Virus record (IMG/VR): IMGVR_UViG_3300046819_000377
Coordinates: 3,802-67,801 of that record
Reading direction: 5' to 3' (one strand)
DNA: 64,000 nt
Origin: a virus
The notes under the pieces are model-generated. The model was not told where the DNA came from. It saw only the letters and a program-made list of their open reading frames with translations, and searched no databases. The position numbers and the translations under genes were made by a program. Below are positions 16,283 through 61,441 of this stretch, in pieces; position 1 is the first letter of the stretch, and each line of letters starts with the position of its first letter.

Positions 16283-16314
16283 ACACATTTTACACAACAA
16301 CATAAGAGAACTTT

Positions 16315-17382
16315 ATGACTTATTATTTGAAATCTGGCAACACATACAAACCAAGTGCAGAAGCATCATTGGATCTTCACTACACACTGCCAGTTGGCAA
16401 TTACATTATCAAAAAAGATCCTTTCGAAAATCTATATTTCGAAAAAATTGACAATTTCGAATTTTCTGGAAAACGCTATGGTGATAACCAGAAGAATACC
16501 GATCGGATTATCGATACCTTTATGGATCGTGAAGTTTCAACTGGCGTAATGTTGACTGGTGAAAAAGGTTCTGGTAAATCATTGTTAGCAAAATGCTTAT
16601 CAATGAAAGCAGCAGAATTAAACATCCCAACTTTAATCATTAACGATCCATGGTGTGGTGACAAATTTAACCGTTTGATCCAAGAAATTCAACAACCTTG
16701 TATCGTGTTATTTGACGAGTTTGAAAAGGTATATGACCGTGATAGCCAGGAATCAATCCTGACATTACTCGACGGCGTGTTCCCAACCAAAAAATTGTTT
16801 GTATTAACTTGTAATGACAAATGGCGCGTTGACCAACATATGCGTAATCGTCCAGGTCGTATTTACTACATGTTGGACTTCAAAGGTTTGAGCATCGAGT
16901 TCATTGAAGAATATTGCAATGATAACTTGAAAAACAAATCACATATCGATAACATTTGCAAAATTTCATCATTATTTGCACAGTTCAACTTCGATATGCT
17001 GAAAGCGCTGGTTGAAGAAATGAATCGTTATGATGAATCACCACAAGAAGCATTGGCTATGTTGAATGCAAAACCTGAGTTCGACGAAGGTAACAAATTC
17101 AATGTTCAATTACAAATCAATGGTGTTACTGTTGATCCAGATGATTACTACAACGGTGACAAATGGAACGGCAATCCATTACATGGCAGATTGCAAGTTG
17201 AATATCGTACCTATAAAGATGATCCAGAAGACGGTGTTTGGGTATATGCGAATTTCACACAAACTGATTTGAAAAACGTCGATGCATCTAACGGCAAGTT
17301 TGTGTTCATGAATGAAAAAAATGAAATCATGACCTTGACCAAAGTGAAAGATTCACATTTCAATTTTCACGACGTATTTTGA
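16315..17382 (+). CDS. second AAA+ ATPase (divergent, soluble)
   Basis: Walker A GEKGSGKS, Walker B IVLFDEFEK, sensor/Arg finger MRNRPGRI. About 120-aa C-terminal extension. Confidence 0.7.
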   Translation: MTYYLKSGNTYKPSAEASLDLHYTLPVGNYIIKKDPFENLYFEKIDNFEFSGKRYGDNQKNTDRIIDTFMDREVSTGVMLTGEKGSGKSLLAKCLSMKAAELNIPTLIINDPWCGDKFNRLIQEIQQPCIVLFDEFEKVYDRDSQESILTLLDGVFPTKKLFVLTCNDKWRVDQHMRNRPGRIYYMLDFKGLSIEFIEEYCNDNLKNKSHIDNICKISSLFAQFNFDMLKALVEEMNRYDESPQEALAMLNAKPEFDEGNKFNVQLQINGVTVDPDDYYNGDKWNGNPLHGRLQVEYRTYKDDPEDGVWVYANFTQTDLKNVDASNGKFVFMNEKNEIMTLTKVKDSHFNFHDVF

Positions 17383-23108: not shown

Positions 23109-24122
23109 ATGAAAAAATATGATAATGCAGTAGTAATCATGAGAGCGCAACCACTTCACAACGCTCATTTAGAATTAATCAATAGAGCAGCAGAATTGGC
23201 AAAAAATGTCATTATCTTGCTCGGCTCATCCAAACAACCAAGAACATTTAAGAATCCATTTACATTCAGTGAACGTTGTGGGATGATCTTACGTTCAATT
23301 AACATCAAACCAGCCGTTCAGGTTTATATCGAACCATTAGTGGATATTCCTTATAATGATCAGGTTTGGGCGATCAATGTCCAACGCATTGTTGCTGAAT
23401 GTACACATGGTCAAAGTGTTTGTTTGCTTGGACATAATAAAGGTCCAGAAACCTACTACCTAAAACTATTTCCACAATGGGCTTTGGAAGAATTCGATAA
23501 TGTACAAAACCAATTGAATGCCACTGATATTCGTGAGTTGTATTTTAAAACTCCATATAACCAAGATTATATCAAAGGTGTGGTACCTGATGATACTTTA
23601 TCATTCTTAAATCAATTTCATGGAACCGATGAATACAATGCCATCCTAGATGAGAAAGAATTCATCGCCAAGTATAAACAACAATTTGCTGGTTTAGCAT
23701 ATCCTCCAGTATTTGTTACTGTGGATTGCTGTGTGATTCAATCTGGTCATGTATTAATGATTGAAAGACGATCAAATCCTGGAAAGGGTACTTTTGCCAT
23801 GCCCGGCGGCTTTCTAGATCAAAATGAACTAATCATCGATGGTGCTGTTCGTGAATTAAAAGAAGAAACTAAAATCAAAGTGCCAGTGCCAGTGTTAAAA
23901 GGCAGCATTAAAGCAAGTCATGTATTTGATCACCCAGGTAGATCATTTAGAGGTAGAACTATTACCCATGCTTTTTACATCGAATTACCAGAAGGGCCAC
24001 TTGAAAAAGTTAAAGGTGCCGATGATGCAAAAACCGCAACATGGATTCCAATATCACAATTACAAAGTGAAAATTGCTTTGAAGATCATTATTCAATTAT
24101 TCAACATTTTTTAGGAAACTAA
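23109..24122 (+). CDS. natV: bifunctional NMN adenylyltransferase / Nudix ADP-ribose pyrophosphatase (NadM-Nudix, NatV-like)
   Basis: N-terminal nucleotidyltransferase (VIMRAQPLHNAH). C-terminal Nudix box GGFLDQNELIIDGAVRELKEETKI. Confidence 0.8.
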   Translation: MKKYDNAVVIMRAQPLHNAHLELINRAAELAKNVIILLGSSKQPRTFKNPFTFSERCGMILRSINIKPAVQVYIEPLVDIPYNDQVWAINVQRIVAECTHGQSVCLLGHNKGPETYYLKLFPQWALEEFDNVQNQLNATDIRELYFKTPYNQDYIKGVVPDDTLSFLNQFHGTDEYNAILDEKEFIAKYKQQFAGLAYPPVFVTVDCCVIQSGHVLMIERRSNPGKGTFAMPGGFLDQNELIIDGAVRELKEETKIKVPVPVLKGSIKASHVFDHPGRSFRGRTITHAFYIELPEGPLEKVKGADDAKTATWIPISQLQSENCFEDHYSIIQHFLGN

Positions 24123-29339: not shown

Positions 29340-30803
29340 ATGATAGAACATCTAAAACAACAAAATTTTATCTTACAAGCCGATGCGTACAAAGCTACAC
29401 ATTGGAAGCAATTAAAAAGATCAACTAACAAATCTTACTCGGTTATCGTCCCACGCAAAGTTAGCAAATATTCGGATATCATAGTTGCAATGGGGCAATC
29501 AATGGTTGCTTCATATTTTGCATCTGTCCGTATCACCGATGAAATGATCGATGAAGCTGAATTGGAAATTACCGAACAAGGCTATGATTTCTACCGAGCT
29601 GGATGGGAATATATTGCACACGAATTAGACGGTAAATTACCATTAGCAATTTTTGGTGTTGAAGAAGGTCGTATCGTACAACCACAAACGCCTATTTTAG
29701 GCATTATTAATACCGATGACCGTTCAGCTTGGTTACCTGCATACTCGGAAACTATTGCACAAGATATTATCTGGACAATGAGTTCAGTAGCAAGTTTATC
29801 GTTAGCAATTAGAAAAACATTTGCACATTATATCGAAGAAACTGGTGCTCACATGAATCAGTTGAACACCCGTTGTCATTTCTTTGGTGATCGTGGTGGT
29901 AGTTCTCCTGAATCTGCAGTACTTACTGCCATAGCACATGCCGTAATTTTTGATGGCAGTGATTGTTTACAAGCCAATCGTTATATCAAACGTTTGTATA
30001 ACACTTCAAAAGCATATACTTCAAGTATTGTTGCCACCGAACACAGTACAATGTGTGATAATTCTGACGCAACTACCAAAGATGATTACGGTGCAGCAGT
30101 AATGGCAGTCGAATTACTGGAACAAGCAGTTGAACGCACTAAAACCCGTGGAATTGGTATTCCAATGATTAGTGCAGTTATTGACACATACGATAGTCGT
30201 AGATTTGTCAGAGATTATGTTGGTGGTCCTGAATTAAAAGAACGTGTTATCAATAGTGGTGGTACATTTGTGTTTCGTCCTGATTCTGGTGATATTACAG
30301 TAGAGCCAGGTATGGTCGGTAATGACATTGAATATGCATTTGGTGTAGAAGTCAATGAAAAAGGATACAAAGTTATCCCTTGCTATACCGCAGTATTACA
30401 AGGCGATGGTATTAAATGGAATACTTACGAAAGTGTAATTAAAGGATGGGTTGATGCTGGTTTCAGTATTGATAACTTTGCTATTGGTATGGGCGCTGGA
30501 TTATCAAATGGTACTTCAAGAGACGATTTCAGTTTCAGTATGAAAAGTATTGCAACATTTGATGGGCTGCGTTGGACTCGTAAATTAAAAGAACCAAAAA
30601 CCGATCTTGGTAAAAAATCATTATCAGGATTAGTTAGATGTCGTGAAGATGCCAATGGTAACTTGGAAGTATACGATGCTATACACGAAGGCAACGAGTA
30701 CGGTTTTATGTATCCAGGTTCTGGTTGGAAGTTATGGTTTGAAAACGGCCATAGAAAATATCGTCAATCTTTTGATGAAGTCCGTGAATGGGCTTCAAAG
30801 TAA
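29340..30803 (+). CDS. nadV: nicotinamide phosphoribosyltransferase (NAMPT / NadV)
   Basis: N-terminal ILQADAYKATHW. Full-length (487 aa) with the NAMPT signature. Confidence 0.85.
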   Translation: MIEHLKQQNFILQADAYKATHWKQLKRSTNKSYSVIVPRKVSKYSDIIVAMGQSMVASYFASVRITDEMIDEAELEITEQGYDFYRAGWEYIAHELDGKLPLAIFGVEEGRIVQPQTPILGIINTDDRSAWLPAYSETIAQDIIWTMSSVASLSLAIRKTFAHYIEETGAHMNQLNTRCHFFGDRGGSSPESAVLTAIAHAVIFDGSDCLQANRYIKRLYNTSKAYTSSIVATEHSTMCDNSDATTKDDYGAAVMAVELLEQAVERTKTRGIGIPMISAVIDTYDSRRFVRDYVGGPELKERVINSGGTFVFRPDSGDITVEPGMVGNDIEYAFGVEVNEKGYKVIPCYTAVLQGDGIKWNTYESVIKGWVDAGFSIDNFAIGMGAGLSNGTSRDDFSFSMKSIATFDGLRWTRKLKEPKTDLGKKSLSGLVRCREDANGNLEVYDAIHEGNEYGFMYPGSGWKLWFENGHRKYRQSFDEVREWASK

Positions 30804-34974: not shown

Positions 34975-35196
34975 TCAACTCCATCTGATGATGGCTAATG
35001 TTATTTTTACTGGATCACCTTGGTAAATTTCAAGATAAGTTTCGTCTGTTTCTGGACTTAATTTTGCATAGGTAACAATCATCCAGTTTGCACCGTCATT
35101 GTGATAACCGAATTTTTTAGTCATCCATTGATAGACTTCAACATAATTACGTTTGGATATTTTAATTTTAGTCATGACCACTTGATTACAAACCAA
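34975..35196 (-). CDS. W-family small protein (ends KITLAIIRWS*)
   Basis: C-terminal motif. Confidence 0.55.
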   Translation of the reverse strand: MVCNQVVMTKIKISKRNYVEVYQWMTKKFGYHNDGANWMIVTYAKLSPETDETYLEIYQGDPVKITLAIIRWS

Positions 35197-35405
35197 TTCC
35201 TGTGCTCTTCTTTTCTGAAGGCGAAAATATCACAATCATCAATCTCTGCATACGAATTGTACCACATTAGTTCACCAAACGTTGTATCACACCATTCAAA
35301 CATATCTTGGAACACCTCGTCTTCACCATATCTATCATAAAGCTTTATTCTATCATCATGAAAGAGTAAAGCCTGATAAACATATTCTTCTGTATGAACT
35401 TGCAT
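35172..35405 (-). CDS. W-family small protein (ends EEHRNWFVIKWS*)
   Basis: C-terminal motif. Confidence 0.6.
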   Translation of the reverse strand: MQVHTEEYVYQALLFHDDRIKLYDRYGEDEVFQDMFEWCDTTFGELMWYNSYAEIDDCDIFAFRKEEHRNWFVIKWS

Positions 35406-37572: not shown

Positions 37573-37842
37573 TTACTTTCCCCATTTCAATAAAAACCAA
37601 GTTTTGTCAGTTTCCGATAATTCTGCCATTACTTGGTATCTGTTGCAATCAAATGCATAATCGGCGACTCCTAAAACCCTAATTGATTTACTTCGTCGTT
37701 TCACCCATCGCCCAATTTCTGATTCATAGAATTTGTCGAGTATTTCGTTATATGGGTCATAATCTGGACCGTTCATAGTGGCTGGGTACATGTATGAAAG
37801 ATTGGATATTATAAACTCATGTACACACATTATTTCATTCAT
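37573..37842 (-). CDS. W-family small protein (ends DKTWFLLKWGK*)
   Basis: C-terminal motif. Confidence 0.6.
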   Translation of the reverse strand: MNEIMCVHEFIISNLSYMYPATMNGPDYDPYNEILDKFYESEIGRWVKRRSKSIRVLGVADYAFDCNRYQVMAELSETDKTWFLLKWGK

Positions 37843-38304: not shown

Positions 38305-38531
38305 TTCAACACAAACATTGTGTATAGTTCTTCTTTAATAGCATAATCAACAATAGTCATGCATTCGGTCCTCTTCCATAATGACACATTACAAGTTTTA
38401 ACCCATCTACGTATTTCTGCTGAATATATGCGTAAATAGTACCACTTGTTATTATTCTTATCGGTTTCAATCTCATACATATTGAATTTCTTATTACTAG
38501 CAACAATTGGTCTGATTATTTTATTGGTCAT
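38292..38531 (-). CDS. W-family small protein (ends LYTMFVLKWEA*)
   Basis: C-terminal motif. Confidence 0.55.
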   Translation of the reverse strand: MTNKIIRPIVASNKKFNMYEIETDKNNNKWYYLRIYSAEIRRWVKTCNVSLWKRTECMTIVDYAIKEELYTMFVLKWEA

Positions 38532-38733
38532 GGTATCCCCATTTCAATACAAACCATGTATAATTTTCATCCGTAAATTCGATTTCGTAAAACCCATCAA
38601 TTTCAATGACAGTACATCTGTAAGTAGTTTCAAACTGATCAATGAACTTACCATCGGATAATCCTTTGTGTTCTATGAAATATCGATTCAAAATAGGCCA
38701 TATAGTATGATTATTCAATTTAAGTCTAACCAT
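38521..38733 (-). CDS. W-family small protein (ends NYTWFVLKWGYHDQ*)
   Basis: C-terminal motif. Confidence 0.6.
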   Translation of the reverse strand: MVRLKLNNHTIWPILNRYFIEHKGLSDGKFIDQFETTYRCTVIEIDGFYEIEFTDENYTWFVLKWGYHDQ

Positions 38734-38989
38734 GAGATCCCCATTTTAAAATAAACCAGGTGTAATCCTCATCTTTGAACGTCAATGTCCATTCACCAAA
38801 TGAAATTTCCTCAGTAGTGCATCTAAATGTTTTGTGAAACAATTCCATATATTCGTGAGTGAGGAGATCAGCATTGGCGTAATAAAATTCTTGAATTGAA
38901 TGTCTTGCTTTATCTGGCAGTTCATATATCGCTTTAGTAATCATATTATCACACGTGTAACATAAACCAAGTAAACCGTTCTTTAACAT
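38726..38989 (-). CDS. W-family small protein (ends DYTWFILKWGSHG*)
   Basis: ATG 38989 (the ORF-track start was TTG). Confidence 0.6.
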   Translation of the reverse strand: MLKNGLLGLCYTCDNMITKAIYELPDKARHSIQEFYYANADLLTHEYMELFHKTFRCTTEEISFGEWTLTFKDEDYTWFILKWGSHG

Positions 38990-39092
38990 AGGCAATCATT
39001 GTCAATGACGGCTTTTCATGATCCCGTAATGCTTTTAATCTCTCATATTGCGGAATAGTTAATTTAATTGTTTTTGCCATTTAAAAATCTCA

Positions 39093-39645: not shown

Positions 39646-40617
39646 ATGAATATTTATATTCCGTACACTTATATTATCAAATTTTTACCAACTGGTCAAG
39701 TCTATTATGGCGTTAGTTATGCTAATAGCAATAAAGTAGCCAATCCATCACAGTTATGGACTAGTTATTTTACCTCTTCCAAGATTATTCATGGATTAAT
39801 AAAGGAACATGGCATTGATGCATTCAAGTTTGAAGTTAGAAAAACCTTCGATAGCAAAGAAAAGGCTGTGTTATGGGAACATAAGATCCTTATAAAATTT
39901 GATGCCAAGAACAATCCAATATGGCTTAATCAAAACAATGGTAATAAAAAGTTCAAATCAATTCCGCACACCACTGAAACAAAATTAAAAATTTCACTCG
40001 CACATAAAGGTAAAAAACTGTCTCCTATCACAGTTGAAAAAATAAAAAATGCAAACACTGGTAAGAAACGAACACCAGAACAAAATGCTAATACATCTGC
40101 CAGACAATTGGGGACCAAAAGAGGGCCATTATCGGATGACTGTAAGAAAAAATTATCGAGTATTCTGAAAGACAGAAAATTGACATCTGACCATAAACAA
40201 AAAATATCAATCGCACTTACTGGAAAAACTGGCACATTCACTGGTAGGAATCATACACCTGAAACAAAAGCAAAAATTTCAGCAGCACATTTAGGAAAAA
40301 AGAAGAAACGCGATCCTAATAAAAATCCACCGAAAGGCGAATCTCATCCATTATACGGCAGAACAGTACCAGCGGAAATTAGACAAAAAATTGCTATGGC
40401 GCACAAAGGTAAACCAAAGACTGAAAAACAAATTCAATCAGTAATTGATCATTCTGCTAAAACTTATAGTTTAACTACACCAGCTGGTGATACTATTATA
40501 ATAACTAATATGGCCAAATTTTGTAGAGATAATGATCTATTACGAGAAAGTATGATGAAAGTAATTCATGGTCGTATGAAATCATGTAATGGATGGACAG
40601 GGAAACTCGTTGAATAA
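39646..40617 (+). CDS. GIY-YIG homing endonuclease with NUMOD3-like repeats (free-standing, antisense to neighbours)
   Basis: IYIPYTYIIKF..GQVYYGVS (GIY-YIG). Repeated H(T/K)xE(T/Q)KxKIS..GK(K/P) modules. SD GGAGGG. Confidence 0.75.
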   Translation: MNIYIPYTYIIKFLPTGQVYYGVSYANSNKVANPSQLWTSYFTSSKIIHGLIKEHGIDAFKFEVRKTFDSKEKAVLWEHKILIKFDAKNNPIWLNQNNGNKKFKSIPHTTETKLKISLAHKGKKLSPITVEKIKNANTGKKRTPEQNANTSARQLGTKRGPLSDDCKKKLSSILKDRKLTSDHKQKISIALTGKTGTFTGRNHTPETKAKISAAHLGKKKKRDPNKNPPKGESHPLYGRTVPAEIRQKIAMAHKGKPKTEKQIQSVIDHSAKTYSLTTPAGDTIIITNMAKFCRDNDLLRESMMKVIHGRMKSCNGWTGKLVE

Positions 40618-40764
40618 TTATATTCCTAATTCAAAGATTGTGTTGTAAAGGTTGAATAATTCTTCATCTGATAAATTATACACATCAGTAACCCGCATGT
40701 CAAATATTTCTTCCAAGGATTCATCCCAGTGGTTAGCAATCCGTTCTAGTATTAAATCTCTCAT
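40618..40764 (-). CDS. small acidic protein (48 aa)
   Basis: ATGA overlap with upstream stop at 40761-40764. MRDLILERIANHWDESLEEIFDM... Not in the ORF track. Confidence 0.3.
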   Translation of the reverse strand: MRDLILERIANHWDESLEEIFDMRVTDVYNLSDEELFNLYNTIFELGI

Positions 40765-41093
40765 TTTAAAAACTCGCTGTATTTAATCAAGAAAAACGTG
40801 CGTTTAGCTTCATCGTAAAAATCTAATTTGATCATCTTTTTTGCCTCTTTTCTTTGAGGTTCATACAGAAATAATGAACTGAATGAAGACTGTTCAGCTT
40901 CCAGGTAACTCTTATATTCCGCAGCATATTTAGGATTATCTACCCATTCGGTATGTTCACGCGGAGTAAATCCCAGTACACGTTTTGTTTTTTCTCTGAT
41001 TGCTAGCACACTTGGAGGATAATCATTGTGTAATTCTAACAACAACTTTTTCCATTGTTCTTTTGTAATTGATATAGGTTTCATGCCATCCAC
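40761..41093 (-). CDS. W-family variant (ends KRTFFLIKYSEFLK*)
   Basis: C-terminal motif. Confidence 0.5.
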   Translation of the reverse strand: MDGMKPISITKEQWKKLLLELHNDYPPSVLAIREKTKRVLGFTPREHTEWVDNPKYAAEYKSYLEAEQSSFSSLFLYEPQRKEAKKMIKLDFYDEAKRTFFLIKYSEFLK

Positions 41094-41347
41094 CTTAATT
41101 TAAACCATGTCATTTGCGCTCTTTTAACTATTCTAGCATCAAATTGCACATATATATCTTCTTTAATCACATACCCAGTATCATCGTCAAATACAGATTC
41201 TAAATATAATTTCCAATTATATCCTGCACGATACCATGTATTGGACAATTGCAATACTTCTGGACCTACATTTTTAATTAGCCACTCCACAAGTTGATTA
41301 GCCTCGTATGAGTGGACATCATCTAAATTTGTTATTTTTCTACGCAC
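41081..41347 (-). CDS. W-family small protein (ends QMTWFKLRWMA*)
   Basis: C-terminal motif. Confidence 0.55.
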   Translation of the reverse strand: MRRKITNLDDVHSYEANQLVEWLIKNVGPEVLQLSNTWYRAGYNWKLYLESVFDDDTGYVIKEDIYVQFDARIVKRAQMTWFKLRWMA

Positions 41348-41618: not shown

Positions 41619-41907
41619 ATACTTCCCATGTATTATTTAAATAATCCCAATGTCTACTATCATAGACTGATATTGCAAATTGATATCCTAAAATACCAAT
41701 CTCTAACTTTGGACCTGCGTGATCTTCACCTAACCAACTAATGACCAGGTTAAGTTCAAACAAGTTCCAATCATAATGCATCAGTTGTAATTCCCAATGC
41801 TTGTGTGGATTAAATGATCCGCTTTTGAACCATAAATTCTCAAAATTACTATTTTTGAAAAAAGGATTTTTTATTTGTAAATTAAATTTGATCATGAATG
41901 ACTCCAA
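41587..41907 (-). CDS. hypothetical protein (106 aa)
   Basis: ORF track. Confidence 0.5.
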   Translation of the reverse strand: MESFMIKFNLQIKNPFFKNSNFENLWFKSGSFNPHKHWELQLMHYDWNLFELNLVISWLGEDHAGPKLEIGILGYQFAISVYDSRHWDYLNNTWEVYDNREENENT

Positions 41908-42176
41908 CGTAAATTAAACCAATTTGCCATTTCTGGTCTTTCAAACCAGAATTCATGTCGCAAAAATTTAATTTCAAAAGTGCTAGGATCGATCACCGGT
42001 TTGCTTTGATTAGCATAAAAAAATGAATCACTATTTTGCTCACGACACCATGTAATCATGTCATCGTATACTCCAACAGAAACTGATCTATTGATGGTAA
42101 TTTTGGTCCAAGAATCATGTTGTTTGATATCTACTGAACGTCTCATAAAACCATTCCTATATATCCAATATAACAC
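41892..42176 (-). CDS. W-family small protein (ends EMANWFNLRWSHS*)
   Basis: C-terminal motif. Confidence 0.55.
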   Translation of the reverse strand: MLYWIYRNGFMRRSVDIKQHDSWTKITINRSVSVGVYDDMITWCREQNSDSFFYANQSKPVIDPSTFEIKFLRHEFWFERPEMANWFNLRWSHS

Positions 42177-43001: not shown

Positions 43002-43297
43002 ATTCCATATTTTATTTTGAACAAAAAATATTTGTGTTCGTTTACTATTACTGCCGCATCTACATCAACTTGACCTTCACGCATTGGTATGTCCAACCCA
43101 TAGGTGTCTTTAATATGTGATAGTAACGAAGTGATACTCCAGTTACTGTTACTATTTGCATAATCATCCCGTATTTCTCGTAATACCACAATCATTCGAT
43201 TTCTAAAGGTTCGCTGTTTTTCTAACTCTTTTGCATACTGTTTAGTGTCATCAGCTAATTCTTTAAGTGTTTTTTCTGCTATTTTATTCATGACCAT
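42998..43297 (-). CDS. W-family-like small protein (ends HKYFLFKIKYGI*)
   Basis: ORF track. Confidence 0.45.
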   Translation of the reverse strand: MVMNKIAEKTLKELADDTKQYAKELEKQRTFRNRMIVVLREIRDDYANSNSNWSITSLLSHIKDTYGLDIPMREGQVDVDAAVIVNEHKYFLFKIKYGI

Positions 43298-43560
43298 CTC
43301 AGTAAAAACCAGGTATAATTTGCATCGTCCTCAAATTCTGCATATTTTGGCTCATCGTATGACGGCTTAATCTTACATTTATTTTCTTGTTCAAAATGCT
43401 TATAAACTAGTTCCATTTGTTTAGAGAATACCTGATCAAGATTGCCAGTAAATTCAACCATCGGCGAATGTGCAACCGAATATTTACTGGCTTTACGAAC
43501 AGCGACATCCCTAGTAAGCGATAATTTTTTCATCAAGCACCCCATCTTATAATAAACCAA
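43288..43560 (-). CDS. W-family small protein (ends DANYTWFLLRWS*)
   Basis: C-terminal motif. Confidence 0.6.
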   Translation of the reverse strand: MVYYKMGCLMKKLSLTRDVAVRKASKYSVAHSPMVEFTGNLDQVFSKQMELVYKHFEQENKCKIKPSYDEPKYAEFEDDANYTWFLLRWS

Positions 43561-43889
43561 TTTCTGTCAGCTGCATTTCGGAAAATAAATCGATCATCAG
43601 GTACTAATTTCCACCGATCACCTAGAATTTCTCCGAATACTTCTTCACACCATTTAACGCAGTCTTGAACATGGATCTTACTACTTGGACTAACCCAATA
43701 TACATAATCTTGGTAATCAGTATAATCATCGCCTTGACGCAATGGTCTTGTATCATATCGCGTTCTCAATGAAAATATCTGACCAGCTTGGCTTGTCATT
43801 GGTTGAACCCCCACGATATTTTGTGCAATCAATTCTGGTTGTACTCTGCGTATCATTGACAAAATTGATTGTTTTGATAACTCTTTCAT
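43533..43889 (-). CDS. W-family small protein (ends ADRNWFIIRWGA*)
   Basis: C-terminal motif. Confidence 0.6.
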   Translation of the reverse strand: MKELSKQSILSMIRRVQPELIAQNIVGVQPMTSQAGQIFSLRTRYDTRPLRQGDDYTDYQDYVYWVSPSSKIHVQDCVKWCEEVFGEILGDRWKLVPDDRFIFRNAADRNWFIIRWGA

Positions 43890-44121: not shown

Positions 44122-44367
44122 TTAACTCCATTTTAATAAAAACCAATTCCTATCAATCTCATTTGCGAACCATATATATGAAAATGTATATGACCATCTC
44201 TCATTTTGGGTCTCACACCAACCATCACCACCAAATTGTTGTGATGCCCATTCAATTATTTCAGGATATTCGTCATAAAAACCATCCCCTAAATAAACTG
44301 CATATGGATGCACGTTTGCTGAAAAAAATTCAGTACTTATCTTATATTGTTTTTTCATCAGCCCCAC
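44122..44367 (-). CDS. W-family small protein (ends EIDRNWFLLKWS*)
   Basis: C-terminal motif. Confidence 0.6.
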   Translation of the reverse strand: MGLMKKQYKISTEFFSANVHPYAVYLGDGFYDEYPEIIEWASQQFGGDGWCETQNERWSYTFSYIWFANEIDRNWFLLKWS

Positions 44368-44669
44368 CGTAATGCAAACCAGTTCTTATCTTCTTCACTT
44401 TTTATAAGTATTCTAGCAGGAGTTCCCTCATATGGACTAGTCCAACACCATCTTTCATTGACTATTGGCTTGTTATGAATCATTAACTCCATGAATTCAT
44501 TTAATGAGCAACTAGGACCAAATGTTTCCCAACACCATTGACGCATTTCACAGAATTTTGCTGTTCGATCACCTTGTTGCCAAGAAGGTTGCCATCTGAA
44601 AACCATGCTGTATTTGAAGTATTGATGACCGGTGTATCGCTTGTCTAACTTTGATATCGCTATATTCAT
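44358..44669 (-). CDS. W-family small protein (ends EEDKNWFALRWG*)
   Basis: C-terminal motif. First gene of the minus-strand block. Confidence 0.6.
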   Translation of the reverse strand: MNIAISKLDKRYTGHQYFKYSMVFRWQPSWQQGDRTAKFCEMRQWCWETFGPSCSLNEFMELMIHNKPIVNERWCWTSPYEGTPARILIKSEEDKNWFALRWG

Positions 44670-45564: not shown

Positions 45565-45924
45565 ATGAGAGCAAGTGAATTTTTAAATGAAGATAATTTT
45601 GGAGTAGGAAAAAAACGCCCTGCACGACCTGGATCTCGCGAAGACCAAGTTGGTCCACGTGGTCACAAACCAGAAACGCAATATAGTGTGGATGAAGAAT
45701 TCGAAATTGATGAAGCTGGAAAGGCTCCTAAAAAGCTGTGTCTTTCTAAAAAAACTGATGGTGAATTAGGTGCAAGCCAATTATCATCATGTCAAGCACA
45801 GGGCTTACGTAAAAGAAATACAAAACGAAAATTTAGAATTGGTAAGAAAGTTCAATCAATTGATGGTAAATATGTGCGTTCGGCTGACTACGGAGGCCCT
45901 TTGCCCAAATGGAAAGGAAATTAG
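45565..45924 (+). CDS. basic protein with MRASEFLNE N-terminus (candidate packaged internal protein)
   Basis: SD GAGGAAG. K/R-rich. N-terminal motif shared with 46685, 53485 and 61016. Confidence 0.55.
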   Translation: MRASEFLNEDNFGVGKKRPARPGSREDQVGPRGHKPETQYSVDEEFEIDEAGKAPKKLCLSKKTDGELGASQLSSCQAQGLRKRNTKRKFRIGKKVQSIDGKYVRSADYGGPLPKWKGN

Positions 45925-45933
45925 GAATTATTT

Positions 45934-46698
45934 ATGGAATTTTTGAATAATAAGTATACCAAAATGTATTTCTCGATTGTTGAAAATGCAAAATTAAGAA
46001 AATGTATAGATGGGTATTCTGAAAAACATCATATAATCCCTAAAAGTTTAGGTGGTGATAATAGTCATACTAATATAGTAATACTTACTGCACGTGAACA
46101 TTTTGTATGTCATAGATTATTGCCAAAAATGACTACCGGTAGTTTTAGATACAAAATGCTTTCTGCCATATTTAGGATGATGCATAGCAGTCAATCACAA
46201 CGGTATATTGGTACGTCTCATACGTATAATTCTATAAAAATAGAGAAGGCGAAGTTAGCATCAACTATATTCAGTGGTGATAATAATCCATTTTATGGAA
46301 AGACCCATTCTGAAGAAACCAGGCAACGATTAAAAATCGCGAGGGAACTTCAAGTAGCCCGTCAAGGCACTACCATGACTGCCGAAGCTAGGCAAAAGTT
46401 AAGTGTTGCCGCAAAAGGTAGAATCTTAACTGATGAACATAAGCGAAAAATAGGAATTGCAAATTCTAATAAACCGATGTCTGAAGAGCATAAAGCCCGA
46501 CTATTACTCACTAGAAAAGGAATACCATTAACACCCGACCATAGAAAACTTCTCAGTGATGTTAAGAAAAATATACCGCAATTGGTTGTGAAATGCCCAC
46601 ATTGTGACAAATCTGGCGGCGTTTCTCTTATGAAAAGATGGCATTTTGATAATTGTAAATGTATTACTAATGGAAAGGTAACTAATGCGATTTCGTGA
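45934..46698 (+). CDS. HNH homing endonuclease with NUMOD3 repeats and C-terminal Zn finger
   Basis: HHIIPKSLGGDNSHTNIVILTAREHFVCH. NPFYGKTHSEETRQRLK. CPHCDKSGGVSLMKRWHFDNCK. Confidence 0.75.
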   Translation: MEFLNNKYTKMYFSIVENAKLRKCIDGYSEKHHIIPKSLGGDNSHTNIVILTAREHFVCHRLLPKMTTGSFRYKMLSAIFRMMHSSQSQRYIGTSHTYNSIKIEKAKLASTIFSGDNNPFYGKTHSEETRQRLKIARELQVARQGTTMTAEARQKLSVAAKGRILTDEHKRKIGIANSNKPMSEEHKARLLLTRKGIPLTPDHRKLLSDVKKNIPQLVVKCPHCDKSGGVSLMKRWHFDNCKCITNGKVTNAIS

Positions 46699-47308
46699 AT
46701 TTTCAAAATTAACAGAATTTGATGCGGGTAGCGCGATATCATCTGCAGGTAATATTATTAGTATGTTATCTAATCCACTCGGTGCATTAGATAATATTAC
46801 TGGTACTACTTCTACCGATTCGGCTGGTGCTGGATCATCGACTGCTGATATAGCAACTATTCAAGACCCAGATTTTAACAGAAAATTAGAAAAGGTTGCA
46901 AATAAGTTAGGTGTTAGAGCTAATGATTTGCTTGCTATTATGAAGCAAGAATCAGGTGTTGATCCATCAAGAGTTAATTCAACATCTAACGCAACTGGCC
47001 TTATTCAATTCATGCCAGATACTGCTAGAAGACTTGGAACTACTACCGATGCATTAGCTAAAATGTCAGCTGTTGAACAACTAGATTATGTTTACTTATA
47101 TTACAAAAGTGTTAAACTTAAACCTGGGTCCGATGCCGGTGATATGTATGTGGCAACATTTTATCCAGCCGCTGCAGGACAACCTGATAATTATGTAATC
47201 AGTTCACGCGGAAACAAAGTTTATAACCAAAATGCAGGATTAGATAGAAATAAAGATGGAACAATCACTGTGGGAGATGTAAAAAAATCTGTATCAAGGT
47301 TTGTATAG
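46685..47308 (+). CDS. lytic transglycosylase (SLT-like) with MRFREF N-terminus
   Basis: LLAIMKQESGVDPSRVNSTSNATGLIQFMPDTARRLG resembles the SLT catalytic motif (E-S..GLMQ.MP.TA). Confidence 0.55.
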   Translation: MRFREFSKLTEFDAGSAISSAGNIISMLSNPLGALDNITGTTSTDSAGAGSSTADIATIQDPDFNRKLEKVANKLGVRANDLLAIMKQESGVDPSRVNSTSNATGLIQFMPDTARRLGTTTDALAKMSAVEQLDYVYLYYKSVKLKPGSDAGDMYVATFYPAAAGQPDNYVISSRGNKVYNQNAGLDRNKDGTITVGDVKKSVSRFV

Positions 47309-47320
47309 TTAAATAACTTT

Positions 47321-47902
47321 ATGAATTTAATAGGTAATTTAATTATATCCCCGCCATCAGTAAAAGGCAATTTCTGGTATAAAACAGTCGCAATGATTGT
47401 TGAACATCATAATCAAGGAAGTATTGGTATAGTTCTTAATAAACGAAGTAACTATACTATAAATGAATTAGGTGATCAACTTGATTTAGATTTTGATATA
47501 CCAGGATATGTCTATATAGGTGGTCCAGTCAATCCGAATAGTATTAGTTTAATTCATTCTAATGAATGGAGTTGCGATAATACACTTCGGCTTAATGAAA
47601 ACTTCTCATTAAGCTCATCAAAAGAAATCATGCGACGATTTTCTAATAATGACTTACCAAAAAAGTGGAGGTTATTTTTTGGAATTTGTGGATGGCCACC
47701 TGGTAAACTACATAAAGAAATTAATGGCATTGAACCAGAAGATAAGAACACTAGTTGGTGTTTTACCAATAGCGACACAGATTTAGTGTTTAATCATGAC
47801 ACCAAAGTACAATGGAATAAAGCATTAGAAAAAGCCGCAGCTGAATTCGCACATAACATCTTGCCAGTAAAAATAGATAATTGTTTTAAAAACATTAAAT
47901 AG
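47321..47902 (+). CDS. YqgE/AlgH family protein (UPF0301)
   Basis: GNLIISPPSV..NFWYKTVAMIVEHHNQGSIGIVLNKRS..YIGGPV..GICGWPPGKLHKEI matches the AlgH family pattern. Confidence 0.55.
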   Translation: MNLIGNLIISPPSVKGNFWYKTVAMIVEHHNQGSIGIVLNKRSNYTINELGDQLDLDFDIPGYVYIGGPVNPNSISLIHSNEWSCDNTLRLNENFSLSSSKEIMRRFSNNDLPKKWRLFFGICGWPPGKLHKEINGIEPEDKNTSWCFTNSDTDLVFNHDTKVQWNKALEKAAAEFAHNILPVKIDNCFKNIK

Positions 47903-47925: not shown

Positions 47926-48741
47926 ATGAAATATATTTTATTATTACTCGCTGCAGGTTTTACACTTTCAGCAGAAGCCTGGGACCAAGTTGCCCCATAT
48001 CCAATTGAAAAATGCCAAGTACAATCACCGTATGGCTTTCCACAAACTTCTAAACAAGGTGTAGCAATATGTCGTGCTGGTTATGTTACATTAAACGATA
48101 CTACTGCAAAATTACCAGTTTGGGTTTCTTATACATTATATCCTGAATATGCGTTAGGATGTGTTCCACGTTCTAATGGCTTTGCCCCCGATCAAAGCTT
48201 ACCAAAAGGTAGTAGGGCAGAGCTAATCGATTTTAAAGGCAGCGGCTATGATATTGGTCACGTAGTACCCAATGCAGATCAATCAAGGTTCGATCAAACA
48301 GAAAAAGAAAGTTTCTTATTAACTAATATGGTGGCTCAATTACCAGGAACTAATAGAGGAATAATTAAATTGACCGAAACTAATATTCGTGGATGGGTAA
48401 CACAGAGAAATCATCCATATGTAATTTATTCTGGTCCATTATATGGACCAGGTGATAAAACTATTGGTTTAAACCAAATAGTCGTTCCTCATGCATTTTA
48501 TAAAATAGTAATTGACACAACAACTAATGAAGTTGCTGGATTTCTAATACCACATGTCGGAAATCAAGGAAATGACTTGACAAAAGTTAGAGCACCAATT
48601 GATCAAATCCAACAATTATCAGGAGTCCAATTTGCATACCCAGCGAATGCGGTTGAATTACCATTAAATTATTTATGGCCTGTTGATTATAAAGCATTAA
48701 CCGAAGCGAAAAGAGCTGCATGCAAAGGCAACGCTAACTAA
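47926..48741 (+). CDS. secreted DNA/RNA non-specific endonuclease (Endonuclease I / NucA-like)
   Basis: Signal peptide MKYILLLLAAGFTLSAEA. GYDIGHVVPNADQS (DRGH-type motif). LPGTNRG..RGW. Confidence 0.6.
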   Translation: MKYILLLLAAGFTLSAEAWDQVAPYPIEKCQVQSPYGFPQTSKQGVAICRAGYVTLNDTTAKLPVWVSYTLYPEYALGCVPRSNGFAPDQSLPKGSRAELIDFKGSGYDIGHVVPNADQSRFDQTEKESFLLTNMVAQLPGTNRGIIKLTETNIRGWVTQRNHPYVIYSGPLYGPGDKTIGLNQIVVPHAFYKIVIDTTTNEVAGFLIPHVGNQGNDLTKVRAPIDQIQQLSGVQFAYPANAVELPLNYLWPVDYKALTEAKRAACKGNAN

Positions 48742-49709
48742 CCAGGTTTATATTTACAATTATCAAAATGCCAGCGTTTTGCGTTCGATGCATTGCTGGC
48801 ATTACCACAATACGGACAAATCAATATTTCCTGTGGTGTTAGTTTTTTGCCCTTTCTTGACAAACTCATTTTCAATTTAGATTCTTCGGTATGTGTTCTA
48901 CCGGCCATGGCCCCTACTTTTCCATACATTGGGTTATTTTCACCAGTGTTAGCTTCACTCAGTTTTTCCTTGAGCTCTTTTGCTCGTTCTACCCCGTATA
49001 TTTCATCGAAGGTCTTTCCTTTACGCAATGCAATCGTTTCCGGAGAATGTTTCTTACCCGTAAAAGTACCAGGTTTTCCATATCTATGATTTTTATCACC
49101 TAACATTTTTATACGTTTTTTCTCAGATATTTCTTTAGCCTTTTCTTCACCGAATATTTCATTATAACTTCTCCCTAACCTAGATGTTTTGTGAATAATC
49201 TTCATCGGTTTTAATGATTCTTTATAAATCCATGTCTTTTTTAATTTATTGATTTTTTCTAATGCTTTTTCTTCCCCATATAATTCAATATATGTTTTTC
49301 CCTTATTATTTGATAGTTGACCTTTATTTCGTATACTAATCATTTGTTTTTGCTTATCGGTCCATAATCTTCCTAATGTACCATCCCCACCGAGGGTCAT
49401 ATTGTATCCAGAATGGTAACTATCATATAAATTGATAAAATATGTCTCCATTGCATTTTTTAAATAATCCCCTTCTAACGATTGATATATTATTTCAAAG
49501 GTAAATTTATCGATGCCATACTTTTTAATAGCATAGTATAAATGCGAATTTAGTTTTCTTGAGTTTCTAGTATGTTCTACGATCCTTCTTTCAAAGTTAT
49601 TTGTAAAACCTATATAAATTTTCTCATTAATTGTATTTGTAATTTTATAAATGGAATAAATATCCATGTTGATACTCCTTTTCAGTATTAAAGTAGATGG
49701 GAACGCCAA
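48738..49709 (-). CDS. GIY-YIG homing endonuclease with NUMOD3 repeats and C-terminal Zn finger
   Basis: YSIYKITNTINEKIYIGFTNNFERRIVEH. NPMYGK. CPYCGNASNASNAKRWHFDNCK. Confidence 0.75.
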   Translation of the reverse strand: MAFPSTLILKRSINMDIYSIYKITNTINEKIYIGFTNNFERRIVEHTRNSRKLNSHLYYAIKKYGIDKFTFEIIYQSLEGDYLKNAMETYFINLYDSYHSGYNMTLGGDGTLGRLWTDKQKQMISIRNKGQLSNNKGKTYIELYGEEKALEKINKLKKTWIYKESLKPMKIIHKTSRLGRSYNEIFGEEKAKEISEKKRIKMLGDKNHRYGKPGTFTGKKHSPETIALRKGKTFDEIYGVERAKELKEKLSEANTGENNPMYGKVGAMAGRTHTEESKLKMSLSRKGKKLTPQEILICPYCGNASNASNAKRWHFDNCKYKPG

Positions 49710-50429: not shown

Positions 50430-51617
50430 TTACAAAATTGATTTTAATGCATCGATTAAATCTTCAATCATTCCATCATCATGAAACGGAGTTGGTGCAA
50501 ATCGCAATCGTTCAGTGCCAACATCTACTGTTGGAGAATTAATTGCTTGTACGTAAATACTATAATCATTTAATAATCTATCACTAATTTCTCTAGCTCT
50601 TTTAGCATCACCAATCAAAACAGGTACGATATGTGTAACTGAATCCATCACTGGTATTCCCGCTTCCTTCATCATTTTTTTTAATTTACTAGCTCGTTCT
50701 TGGTGTTTTTCTCTTAATTCATTATGAGCTTTTGAATATTTAACTGCAGCTAATGCGCCAGCGACAATAACTGGGCTCAATGACGTACTAAAGATGAATC
50801 CATCCGCGATGCTTCGAATAGCATCAATTACTATAGAATCCCCTGCGATATAACCACCTTGTACACCAAATGCTTTGCCAAGCGTACCATTAACAATATC
50901 AACTCGATCTTGCAAATCCATTTCTTCTAACTCACCAGCACCAGTAAATCCTCTAACTCCTACTGCATGAACTTCATCACAGTATGTAATAGCATTATAT
51001 TTGTCAGCTAAATCACAAATTTCTTTAATAGGACTAATATCACCTTCCATACTGTATATGCTTTCAAATACAATACAGGGAATATTTTCATTTTGAACCG
51101 ATTTCTTCAAACAATTTTCCAACTCTACTAAATCATTATGATTGAATATTTGTTTAGATGCACGACTATGAACAATACCCATTATTAGACTATTATGGTT
51201 TTTGCTATCACTTATAAATTCAATATTTGGGATAATTTTAGCCAATGCTATTAAACTTGACGTATTCGCTACATAAGCCGAAGTAAATAATAATGCACTC
51301 TCTTTTTTATGCAATGATGCCAATTCATGTTCTAATGCAACATGATAATGGGTAGTACCTGATATATTTCTCGTACCACCGGATCCAGCACCTGTCATAT
51401 CTAATGCTGTTCGCATTGCATCTAGTACTACTTTATGCTGTCCAAGTGATAGATAATCATTACTACACCAATTGACAATATTTTTAATGGCATATGGCCC
51501 ATACCAGATTGCATTTGGAAATTTACCTTGTTCTCGTAGTATGTCATTGAAAACTCTATACTTTCCAGTTTCTTTTAAATTATCGATAAGTTTATTAAAT
51601 GGTTCTTTGTTAATCAT
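50430..51617 (-). CDS. hemA: 5-aminolevulinate synthase (ALAS, PLP-dependent alpha-oxoamine synthase)
   Basis: [18 protein letters not shown] (ALAS hallmark). [14 protein letters not shown] (PLP lysine). [10 protein letters not shown]. Confidence 0.75.
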
Positions 51618-51868: not shown

Positions 51869-53470
51869 ATGACATATATACATCCAAATGATAATAATTT
51901 AAAAAATCTGCATAAAGCTATGCAATATAATGAGTCTGGTGAACCAGTTGTTCGCACACATGTTGATGGAATATCATTACAAGGCGATGTTATAGTTGAT
52001 AAGGTTAGAATTCAAATCGATACATTAGGGAATGTATGGGGTGAAAATCATTCTGCACCAGTATCAATCGGTACTAATGGTCAAGTAACATTAAAAACGA
52101 GTTCAGCAGTTATAGGAAAAGTTCAGCAAGATGGTGATTGGACTGTTAAACAAGGTACTACCCCTTGGGCAATTAGTGATAATGGTGGTTCTATTACAGT
52201 AGATGGCAGTGTTTCAATTAGTAGTTTACCAGAAGTAGAAATAAAAAATGATAGTGGAAATCCTATCCCTATTTCATTTTCAACTGGTGCCCTAGATGCA
52301 TTCGGTAGACAAAGAATTTCAGAACCTTTTACTTTAGGTGATTATAAGCACTTATATGGTATCGACCCCGCTTTTATTGATTATGCTGAAAATGGTGGTG
52401 CCATTGAATTTGTAAAAAATAAAGCATGTTGTACATTAACCACTACTTCTAATCCATCTAGTTTTATCATCCATCAAACAAAATTTTATCATCATTATAT
52501 GCCTGGTAAATCTCAAGTAATTTTTAGTAGTATAAATTTTGGAGCAGCTACACCGAACGTAGTTAAACGAACTGGATACTTTGATGACAACGATGGAATT
52601 TATTTCGAACAAGCAGGCGATGGGACTTTATCATGGGTAATAAGAAGTTTTGTTTCTGGCGCTCCCATTGAAGTCAGGAAAACTCAATCACAATGGAATT
52701 TAGATACTGTATCATGGTTGAACATACTTAATACACAATTAGTAGCGATTGATTTCCAGTGGCTGGGCGTTGGTAGAATTAGAGTTGGATTCGCACATAA
52801 TGGTATTGTAGTTTATGTTCATGAATTTTTACATAGCAATAATTTACCAACTGTTTACATGAGTAATCCAAATCTTCCAATTAGATGTGAAATAAGAAAT
52901 ATTGGCACAACTACGGGTGGATCTATGGATCAAATATGTTCAACTGTTTTCAGCGAAGGTGGTTATGTTGAAGCGGGACAGGATTGGGCTGCTACTACAC
53001 CTACATTAAAAGTGATAGATGCTGGAATTACTGCGCCAGTTATGGCAATTAGATTAAAAAATACATTTCATACATATTCAAATAGAATGATTGTTCGTAT
53101 GGGTAATTTGAATATATTCAGTGATGGTGATAATATTAAATGGAGACTGATAAAATTACCAGCACAAGCATTTCTAACAGGTAATTCATGGGTAGATGTG
53201 CACAATGATTCAGGTATTCAATACAACGTAACTGCTACCGCATGGACAGATGGGCAAGAAATGGATAGTGGTTTTGTGGGTGCATCAACGCAAGGTAGTC
53301 AAAAAGCCGGTGGAGCGCCAGCAAGTAATATCCCTTCATCCGCAAAGAAAAATTATATAGTACAAAATTTTGATAGCACGGATTCTGAGATATTTCTAGT
53401 AGTTGCAACTAATTTAGGTGCACAATCAACTAATGTTGGTGTTAGTATGCAATGGCGTGAAATCTATTAA
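51869..53470 (+). CDS. putative virion structural protein (533 aa)
   Basis: Large beta-rich protein at the head of the structural/fibre module. No motif recognised. Confidence 0.6.
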   Translation: MTYIHPNDNNLKNLHKAMQYNESGEPVVRTHVDGISLQGDVIVDKVRIQIDTLGNVWGENHSAPVSIGTNGQVTLKTSSAVIGKVQQDGDWTVKQGTTPWAISDNGGSITVDGSVSISSLPEVEIKNDSGNPIPISFSTGALDAFGRQRISEPFTLGDYKHLYGIDPAFIDYAENGGAIEFVKNKACCTLTTTSNPSSFIIHQTKFYHHYMPGKSQVIFSSINFGAATPNVVKRTGYFDDNDGIYFEQAGDGTLSWVIRSFVSGAPIEVRKTQSQWNLDTVSWLNILNTQLVAIDFQWLGVGRIRVGFAHNGIVVYVHEFLHSNNLPTVYMSNPNLPIRCEIRNIGTTTGGSMDQICSTVFSEGGYVEAGQDWAATTPTLKVIDAGITAPVMAIRLKNTFHTYSNRMIVRMGNLNIFSDGDNIKWRLIKLPAQAFLTGNSWVDVHNDSGIQYNVTATAWTDGQEMDSGFVGASTQGSQKAGGAPASNIPSSAKKNYIVQNFDSTDSEIFLVVATNLGAQSTNVGVSMQWREIY

Positions 53471-53484
53471 GGATAAATACTATT

Positions 53485-53691
53485 ATGAGAGCTGCAGAAT
53501 TTATGAGAGCGTTGGCTGATGTAATTGATACATTAGATGGCGACAAAGAAAATAAAAAAGACCCATCTGAATTAGAAGATAATCCAGTGTTTGTTCCACC
53601 ATTACAACAAAAGATCGAATTGATGAAAAAATCATCAGGTATTCAATCTGTCTTTGATCAGGCAGATGATGATGGTCCTTTTGAGGATTAA
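53485..53691 (+). CDS. small acidic protein with MRAAEFM N-terminus
   Basis: SD AAGGA. Shared N-terminal motif. Confidence 0.5.
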   Translation: MRAAEFMRALADVIDTLDGDKENKKDPSELEDNPVFVPPLQQKIELMKKSSGIQSVFDQADDDGPFED

Positions 53692-61015: not shown

Positions 61016-61441
61016 ATGAGAGCTAAAGAATTTTTAATAGAGAACGCCAGCGGCAGCCCGGTGACCATAAACATACCAATTTCTATAACAATCCCATCGG
61101 ATGGAGGTGGAATTGTTACGTCAACTAATGATCCTGTTGAAAAAGGTGAATTACCAGAAGTTCCAATTCATGTATTTCCACTACAACAAGAATTTGAATT
61201 GAAGAAACATCAGGCAGGTGCTTCTAACCCTGTTATCAATCAAATATTGCATGACAAAGGTGCGTTATCTGACAAAACACAGTCAGAAACCGTGCAACTT
61301 CCACCTACCAGAGATACATTATCTGAAAAAGATGTTTTTACTGATAAAAAAGTAATGGTTGAAAAAGAAAATCAATCATACGATTTTCTCGAAAATTTTG
61401 ACTGGCTAGAACAAGAATTCAGAAATTCTAAAAAGCATTAA
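61016..61441 (+). CDS. protein with MRAKEFLIE N-terminus (candidate packaged internal protein)
   Basis: ATG 61016. Shared N-terminal motif. L-I-E at residues 7-9. Confidence 0.5.
   Translation: MRAKEFLIENASGSPVTINIPISITIPSDGGGIVTSTNDPVEKGELPEVPIHVFPLQQEFELKKHQAGASNPVINQILHDKGALSDKTQSETVQLPPTRDTLSEKDVFTDKKVMVEKENQSYDFLENFDWLEQEFRNSKKH

Follow-up and report, generated by a model that had tools for sequence, protein, structure and literature searches.

A nine-residue N-terminal tag shared by unrelated jumbo-phage proteins is a probable counterpart of the T4 capsid-targeting sequence

We analysed a 64,000-nucleotide stretch of viral DNA (IMG/VR record IMGVR_UViG_3300046819_000377, positions 3,802 to 67,801; hereafter the window), in which four genes, starting at 45565, 46685, 53485 and 61016, encode proteins that open with the same short peptide, MR..EF. 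This shared N-terminus is probably (at a probability of about 0.7) a capsid-targeting propeptide removed by a prohead protease, which would make it a jumbo-phage counterpart of the capsid-targeting sequence (CTS) of phage T4. We infer core binding, cleavage, packaging and ejection as its successive steps. While the prohead assembles, the nine residues M-R-(A/F/Y)-x-E-F-(I/L/V)-x-E would mimic the start of a core protein resident there, the small product of a gene between portal and protease, and in this way bind the scaffolding core. After shell closure, a gp21-family (Peptidase_S77) protease would cut after Glu9 in (I/L/V)-x-E, and the mature cargo would remain beside the DNA inside the head until both are ejected into the next host. 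In the window, the cargo would consist of one small basic protein with Cys residues, a peptidoglycan transglycosylase of the SLT type and a pair of small acidic paralogs. The tag exists and is non-random and modular; it is under selection as a peptide, carries a cleavage-type motif, and matches head-core N-termini of relatives that encode an S77 protease.

Six-frame translation of the window gave exactly four matches to MR..EF and the same four to the wider pattern M[RK]..EF. All lie on the plus strand at the first Met of an open reading frame (ORF):

45565 to 45924, plus strand: tagged putative cargo 1, a basic protein of 119 amino acids (isoelectric point, pI, 9.8) with two conserved Cys
46685 to 47308, plus strand: tagged putative cargo 2, a lytic transglycosylase of 207 amino acids with the SLT domain at residues 70-120
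53485 to 53691, plus strand: tagged putative cargo 3, an acidic PLQQ-family protein of 68 amino acids, pI 4.2
61016 to 61441, plus strand: tagged putative cargo 4, an acidic protein of 141 amino acids, pI 5.0, paralog of 53485

Shuffling within 2-kb blocks (300 trials) left a mean of 0.21 MR..EF matches and a maximum of 2, and about 0.012 matches would be expected by chance among the 188 ORF starts (at least 60 amino acids). Relaxed patterns revealed no further tagged ORF in the window; MKISELIE at about 49812 was rejected as a merely loose resemblance. Independent public gene calls place the same starts on 45565 (119 amino acids) and 53485 (68 amino acids). For 61016, which the mechanical ORF list extended upstream to a TTG at 60968, calls in four public assemblies give 141 amino acids starting MRAKEF.

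An earlier sequence-only reading had described these four tag-like starts, and the translations agree with it. It had also called the bodies basic (45565), SLT-like (46685) and small and acidic (53485), all of which held. Its statement that the four proteins are otherwise unrelated held for three bodies; 53485 and 61016 are paralogs within one small acidic family, named PLQQ after its motif P-V-x-V-x-P-L-Q-Q-x-x-E-L-x-K, so the tag stands on three unrelated families in the window rather than four. The tag of 45565, MRASEFLNE (45565-45591), has the full consensus with L-N-E as residues 7-9. In this family M1, R2, E5 and E9 are invariant in 24 of 24 aligned homologs, and two short homologs carry the tag fused straight onto the C-terminal half; the product had no match in Pfam or PHROG. 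The transglycosylase starts with the variant MRFREFSKLTE (46685-46717), in which L-T-E forms residues 9-11, and has a Ser/Gly/Thr-rich linker ahead of its SLT domain (Pfam E 2.3e-9, exceeding the curated cut-off); its PHROG families are baseplate hub, transglycosylase and internal virion protein with endolysin domain. The tag of 61016, MRAKEFLIE (61016-61042), again shows the full consensus, with L-I-E as residues 7-9. The start of 53485, MRAAEFM (53485-53505), lacks Glu9 and has no (L/I)-x-E nearby. A prohead-protease-type end, hydrophobic (L/I)-x-Glu, is thus present in three of the four window tags, as L-N-E, L-T-E and L-I-E, just as had been claimed.

The 53485 gene lies directly 3' of a structural gene, a placement repeated in five related loci (L001, L005, L020, L051 and L077), and the product of that gene served as the anchor for collecting relatives:

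51869 to 53470, plus strand: virion structural protein of 533 amino acids (phrog_1645), anchor for collecting related loci

Through this protein, itself unrelated to the tag, 80 related viral loci (L001-L080) were gathered. They held 55 M[RK]..EF matches, nearly all at ORF starts, on bodies with PG_binding+SLT, M23, GDSL+PG_binding+SLT, HAD-like and DUF6267 domains, the last with a ligase-like KWDG motif. Viral contigs were also scanned with the DNA pattern ATGAGAGCNNNNGAATTTNTNNNNGA, whose 17 fixed bases would give by rough estimate about 10 chance matches; at least 119 stretches were found, with 216 further M[RK]..EF matches, nearly all at ORF starts among the matches listed. The pooled loci encode at least 227 distinct tagged proteins (median 131 amino acids, range 48-583) with the consensus M-R-A-x-E-F-(I/L/V)-x-E. 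After removal of the first 12 residues, single-linkage BLAST clustering divided the bodies into at least 51 unrelated families, a lower bound. LysM, GH19, amidoligase and small basic proteins were among the further body types, and most tagged families in the approximately 200 loci examined have no known function. At least 64 loci contain two or more tagged genes, and one (L150) holds six. Among the DUF6267 proteins, the homolog in cyanophage P-HM1, the sole match in a search of isolated phages, is untagged and starts MANVTQLKHLEHIEDE, and in the tagged members the tag and a short linker precede the same block. Homologous bodies with and without the tag offer a natural analogue of placing it on a foreign protein. 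These comparisons indicate that the tag is a portable N-terminal module carried by many unrelated bodies.

Such a module could also be a by-product of nucleic acid, as a shared initiation region or a short stretch of recombination homology used for gene shuffling. T4-type phages reportedly shuffle genes through short repeated regulatory cassettes, and the tagged genes do lie in variable regions rich in homing endonucleases. One such endonuclease ORF separates the first two tagged genes:

45934 to 46698, plus strand: homing-endonuclease ORF of 254 amino acids, HNH-like by sequence; context, outside the tag system

The two tagged genes are 1120 nt apart with this ORF between them in the window and in L004, and they abut (359 nt apart) with no endonuclease ORF in L001-L003. 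The three contigs that lack it are 98% identical in the 533-residue protein, so the presence of the ORF varies among close relatives. Two further endonuclease ORFs occur in the window, at 48738-49709 on the minus strand (GIY-YIG/NUMOD3 by precomputed Pfam in L214) and at 39646-40617 (PHROG homing endonuclease).

The codons of the tag speak against a nucleic-acid feature. We examined 83 tagged ORFs that do not match ATGAGAGCNNNNGAATTTNTNNNNGA and were therefore found independently of the search pattern. Arg2 is encoded in them by all of AGA, CGA, CGT, AGG, CGC and CGG, Glu5 by GAA in 50 and GAG in 33, Phe6 by TTT in 58 and TTC in 25, and Glu9 by both codons. At codon 9 the pattern ATGAGAGCNNNNGAATTTNTNNNNGA fixed only GA and permitted Asp and Glu equally, which differ at the third base only, and residue 9 was nevertheless Glu in 144 of 144 pattern-matching proteins among the matches listed. 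Positions 4 and 8 inside the motif are variable, and the DNA upstream of the four window genes does not align. This free synonymous variation indicates selection on the peptide and not on the DNA; together with the unconserved upstream DNA it contradicts the translation-initiation or recombination linker that the sequence-only reading had offered as an alternative, and a DNA-level repeat of the T4 regulatory or recombination cassette type was rejected on the same grounds. An origin of the tag at the nucleic-acid level is largely refuted already and has only a very slight chance of being correct.

Promoter-like sequences near these genes gave no specific signal. Neither the late promoter TATAAATA nor ATAAATAC is enriched in the window. 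ATAAATA, the core of the T4 late promoter TATAAATA, was counted in the 40 nt upstream of long ORF starts in loci L001-L212 and precedes 13% of tagged versus 12% of other ORFs, most often 12 nt ahead of the ATG; it is therefore not specific to tagged genes. In the window, ATAAATAC precedes 45565, 53485, 59162 and 61016. These elements may act as a late promoter or belong to the initiation region.

The peptide itself resembles the sites of the T4 prohead protease. In the independently found set of 83 tags, 52% have [LIVMF]7-x-E9, for which a rough chance estimate is about 2%, and 69% have such a hydrophobic-x-Glu site within residues 6-14. The N-termini of T4 head proteins (NC_000866) are MKTYQEFIAE for IPII and IPIII, MELITELFDE for Alt, MLKEQLIAE for gp22, MAKINELLRE for gp24, MNEPQLLIE for gp21 and MEGLIE for gp67, and all these proteins are gp21 substrates (PMC5694885, PMC9026906). 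The tag and MKTYQEFIAE have M-[KR], E-F-[IL]-x-E and the cleavage Glu in common with an offset of one residue, although nine residues are too short for homology statistics. Targeting by the T4 CTS depends on residues 4 and 7 and its processing on residues 8 and 10, and Asp at position 10 blocks cleavage while targeting is kept (PMC9026906). By analogy with these Asp mutants, the Glu-less 53485 may be targeted but left untrimmed.

The likeness to the T4 CTS, which heads the internal proteins IPI, IPII and IPIII as well as Alt and is removed by the prohead protease gp21, extends to its setting. Both are N-terminal peptides of about ten residues common to otherwise unrelated, fast-evolving proteins, both have an E-F-(I/L)-x-E core ending in a gp21-type (L/I)-x-E site, and one of the putative cargo proteins here is small and basic like the T4 internal proteins; the genes lie in variable, homing-endonuclease-rich regions. 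The differences are that the tag, MRAxEF..E, is one residue shorter and has Arg2 and Ala3; that the phages are PA5oct/RaK2-related jumbo phages with a genome of at least 367 kb; that the putative cargo set is far larger and more enzymatic, with at least 51 families including SLT, M23, GH19, DUF6267, HAD-like and amidoligase; and that up to six tagged genes stand in a row. Both the principle of the CTS and leaders of this type in close relatives of the T-even phages have been described before; our literature search found no description of this tag in cyanophages, in RaK2/PA5oct-type phages or in a 2026 jumbo-phage review. A separate case is gp135 of the T4-like cyanophage S-RIM32 (L081:21278-21592), a basic protein encoded by the next gene after the homolog of the 533-residue protein. 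It is 53% identical to a tagged protein and bears a different leader, MKNYKEIKQLAEEAKKKEVE, which contains L-A-E and E-V-E. This leader (MKNYKEIKQLAE) resembles the T4 CTS, and by sequence gp135 may be an overlooked internal protein of cyanomyoviruses.

The relatives of the window phage offer head genes with which the tag can be compared. The window proteins of 119 and 533 amino acids have exact copies on a JGI contig of 367,267 bp, which identifies the source as a jumbo phage; the GC content of the window is 35%, and megablast of the region against isolated phages gave no near match. In many tag loci the tagged genes lie 1-5 kb from a large terminase (TerL) gene whose product is 54-61% identical to that of Pseudomonas jumbo phage PA5oct and about 44% to those of RaK2-like phages, within PA5oct-like synteny (sheath, tube, TerL, gp32, UvsX). 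PA5oct homologs were found in 43 of 119 tag loci among the matches listed. Two genes of the window bear on this kinship:

47926 to 48741, plus strand: Endonuclease_NS gene, secreted type (Pfam E 5.3e-35)
43533 to 43889, minus strand: ORF of 118 amino acids with a fragment of the T4-type major capsid protein (Pfam Gp23 E 5.6e-13)

The nuclease is 53% identical to one encoded between tagged genes and TerL in L182, L102 and L149, and by this comparison it is a synteny marker connecting the region to tag loci adjoining a PA5oct-like TerL. Homologs of the nuclease and of the fibre proteins 54054 and 59162 are present in PA5oct-like contigs. The capsid fragment, 37 residues at the ORF start with 59% identity to residues 61-97 of the PA5oct major capsid protein, is the sole direct trace of T4-type head genes within the window; it may represent a decoy or a fusion with part of a capsid gene. 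The AAA ATPase at 14937 has its nearest relatives in jumbo phages of 337-360 kb, such as Salmonella phage Munch. Sequence comparison thus places the relatives of the window phage among PA5oct/RaK2-like phages with T4-type head genes.

PA5oct and CBB encode Peptidase_S77 (gp21-family) proteases adjoining T4-type portal and capsid genes, as PMC7318152 also supports. In the freshwater loci L299 and L300, the head module runs Portal_T4, a 78-residue protein starting MRAKELLCE, an acidic protein, S77 protease, scaffold and Gp23. Loci retrieved by means of the PA5oct capsid protein contain 33 homologs of this small post-portal protein, most of which start M[KR]A[KRST][ED][LMI]L[VCF]E, which is nearly the tag (M[KR]A.[ED][LMI]L.E). 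Its PA5oct ortholog is gp333 (MKINDIITE...), annotated as a virion protein detected by electrospray ionization tandem mass spectrometry (ESI-MS/MS). An early N-terminal (L/I)-x-E is likewise present in each of the other head-module products of the PA5oct-like clade, namely scaffold, acidic protein, protease and capsid protein. The gp21-cut T4 head proteins (gp22, gp24, gp67, gp68 and gp21) and their PA5oct and CBB counterparts share this N-terminal architecture (as in MLKEQLIAE, MAKINELLRE and MEGLIE); they differ in being single conserved structural genes, whereas here the peptide is found on dozens of accessory proteins. Given the similarity to MRAKELLCE-type N-termini, the cargo tag seems to have been copied from the start of a resident head-core protein.

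Strict conservation of Glu9 and a hydrophobic residue 7 suggest that a protease recognises the tag, which might be no more than a removable pro-sequence that keeps potentially harmful enzymes, such as peptidoglycan hydrolases and nucleotide enzymes, inactive or times their processing, with no part in capsid targeting; that many tagged proteins are cell-wall hydrolases would fit such a role. A peptide of nine residues is too short to cover an active site, however, and most tagged proteins are small and non-enzymatic. The gp21-family proteases of T4 act inside the prohead (PMC5694885), and the tag nearly reproduces the start of a core protein encoded in the head module. Moreover, the PLQQ subfamily retains MRAxEF without the cleavage Glu, which indicates that the first six residues have a role beyond cleavage. 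We therefore regard a pure pro-sequence as unlikely.

Equally unlikely is that the tag directs proteins to another compartment of the virion, such as the tail lumen, the baseplate or a fibre complex. The window's tagged genes stand among tail-fibre genes, the PHROG relatives of the SLT enzyme include baseplate hub and lytic tail proteins, and in relatives the tagged genes lie between tail tube and terminase. Against this, the closest native match to the tag is the small protein encoded between portal and prohead protease, and its other matches are T4 head substrates. We know of no tail-assembly pathway that uses an N-terminal tag terminated by (L/I)-x-E. The fibre genes deserve mention in their own right. 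The 61016 gene sits just 5' of a giant collagen-like fibre gene (61462-64000 and beyond) that extends past the window end. In three contigs with an identical 141-residue tagged protein (among L214-L217) this fibre has 1192, 2695 and 2872 amino acids, so its repeat region is highly variable in length, and 3' of it lie genes for Laminin_G_3 proteins and a 1936-residue Peptidase_S74 fibre.

Peptidoglycan-active domains (SLT, M23, LysM, PG_binding and GH19) are plentiful among the tagged proteins, and the tag could serve periplasm-acting proteins as an export or membrane-sorting signal, or as a cap modulating one. In L176 (413-1297) the tag is followed by a Tat signal and then LysM+SLT, and in L101 (2992-3612) by a TAT-like signal and then GH19; in L130, the ORF starting at 4493 on the minus strand likewise has a Tat signal directly after the tag. 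But the tag is charged and has no hydrophobic core, no hydrophobic stretch follows it in the four window proteins, and separate Tat signals occur in few relatives only, most tagged proteins having no signal peptide after the tag. Many are of cytoplasmic type (DUF6267 ligase-like, HAD-like, amidoligase and small basic proteins), and the window's secreted nuclease has an ordinary signal-peptide-like N-terminus and is untagged. An export signal thus appears less likely still than a pro-sequence or a tail address. For the Tat-bearing members, cleavage after Glu9 would place the Tat signal at the new N-terminus; the arrangement cuts both ways, since the cell that produces the phage could export these proteins, or the next host could do so after cleavage.

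Several observations weigh against a capsid-targeting propeptide. Where a Tat signal adjoins the tag, the protein may be exported by the producing cell instead of being packaged, and peptidoglycan hydrolases in a myovirus head would be unusual. No nearby (L/I/V)-x-E is present in 31% of the independently found tags, and 53485 and the whole PLQQ subfamily lack Glu9. The commonest tagged family had no tblastn match in isolated phages, which leaves no cultured system at hand, and positions 84-150 kb of PA5oct held no clear tagged cargo. The S77 protease, scaffold and portal of the 367-kb genome itself were not seen and are inferred from its relatives. The sequence-only reading had suggested looking for a gp21-like protease elsewhere in the genome; S77 proteases are present in the relatives PA5oct, CBB and L299, and none was found in the window or its 10-kb flanks. 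The 10 kb upstream held accessory genes only, and the 10 kb downstream, with a further step along a 96-kb relative, held fibres and ribonucleotide reductase only. With the T4-type core proteins of S-RIM32 as queries, neither the window nor L001-L080 yielded a gene for a portal, a protease, a scaffold or a complete capsid protein, and the best 120 S77 homologs listed included none from the 367-kb contig. A 16,247-bp contig with an S77 gene was rejected as the tag-bearing contig, the two being different contigs. A metagenome scan with the capsid-fragment ORF returned a 1.7-kb copy and unrelated marine phages only, and the loci fetched with the PA5oct capsid protein contained just two MK..EF ORFs.

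With these points weighed, the capsid-targeting function proposed by the sequence-only reading is supported, as every prediction that sequence can address was borne out: the tag is modular, is conserved as a peptide, has hydrophobic-x-Glu, and resembles T4 and head-core N-termini.

Other phages load proteins into heads in ways that partly resemble the one proposed here. The inner-body and ejection propeptides of phiKZ, 201phi2-1 and SPN3US also belong to jumbo phages. The phiKZ-type cleavage motif has a small residue three residues before the cut, whereas the tag has I/L/V at that place; it is also nine residues long rather than a long propeptide, and its phages are T4-related and not phiKZ-like. 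A gp21-related protease of these phiKZ-type phages cleaves behind Glu, and a role in directing proteins into the prohead has been proposed for the propeptides (PMC5694885, PMC9026906); most of them exceed 100 residues, with no single shared short tag (PMC5694885). For DarB of phage P1, an N-terminal signal suffices to load a protein into a myovirus head for delivery to the next host; between 9 and 30 residues are needed, and there is no consensus among Dar proteins and no protease-site logic described (PMC9024508). The tag is alike in being a putative N-terminal capsid-loading signal and differs in having a consensus and a protease-type site. The 46685 transglycosylase has its nearest precedent in gp16 of T7, a lytic transglycosylase inside the capsid that is ejected to help cross the cell wall, and its PHROG match to an internal virion protein with endolysin domain agrees with this. 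T7 gp16 is large, forms part of the structural core of a podovirus and bears no cleavable tag, whereas 46685 is small, tagged and encoded by a myovirus-type jumbo phage.

The window contains further genes of interest outside the tag system. Two AAA ATPases lie at 14937-17382. A nicotinamide adenine dinucleotide (NAD) salvage pair is formed by a nicotinamide mononucleotide (NMN) adenylyltransferase/Nudix fusion (23109-24122) and a nicotinamide phosphoribosyltransferase (29340-30803). Between the tagged SLT gene and the Endonuclease_NS gene, 47321-47902 encodes an AlgH-like DUF179 protein (Pfam E 1.2e-30), which is uncommon in phage structural regions. At 50430-51617 on the minus strand lies a gene for a 395-residue class I/II aminotransferase-fold enzyme (precomputed Pfam Aminotran_1_2 for an identical gene in L214), an auxiliary metabolic gene amid structural genes; by sequence it looks like the 5-aminolevulinate / 8-amino-7-oxononanoate synthase type. 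In addition, 19 small ORFs (60-118 amino acids) on both strands share the C-terminal motif [T/N]-W-F-x-L-[R/K]-W-[S/G]-stop, usually preceded by an acidic F-x-D/E stretch:

ends at 1276, 5120, 7445, 7627, 25499, 25696, 25896 and 26141, plus strand: W-F-x-L-[R/K]-W ORFs
35172-35405, 37573-37842, 38521-38733, 38726-38995, 40761-41093 and 41081-41347, minus strand: W-F-x-L-[R/K]-W ORFs
41892-42176, 43288-43560, 43533-43889, 44122-44367 and 44358-44669, minus strand: W-F-x-L-[R/K]-W ORFs

Ten of them had no match in Pfam, and one is the capsid-fragment ORF at 43533-43889. They are either a very large paralogous family or carriers of a second shared terminal module.

Proteins injected with phage DNA act before any phage gene is expressed, and those of T4 serve specifically in counter-defence, as IPI does against a restriction nuclease. 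We know of no way so far to tell which genes of an uncultured phage encode injected proteins. If the tag is a capsid address label, this N-terminal motif would pick out injected proteins across metagenomic jumbo-phage contigs and make the repertoire of the clade readable from sequence alone. That repertoire would range from cell-wall hydrolases, an amidoligase, HAD-like enzymes and the ligase-like DUF6267 enzyme to numerous small proteins without known function, the last being candidates for early counter-defence. The Tat-bearing subset would be injected into the cytoplasm of the new host and then exported to the periplasm. Notable would be how broad the cargo is and that injected proteins could be predicted from the tag, and the tag would also be a natural short label for loading foreign proteins into jumbo-phage capsids. 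We give roughly even odds to the broader proposition that, in a PA5oct/RaK2-related and mostly uncultured jumbo clade, one nine-residue label copied from a prohead core protein loads an open-ended, rapidly shuffled set of proteins into the head. A capsid address label of this kind would carry the principle of the T4 CTS over to a remote branch of T4-related giant phages and suggest that a CTS can evolve through copying of the N-terminus of a resident core protein.

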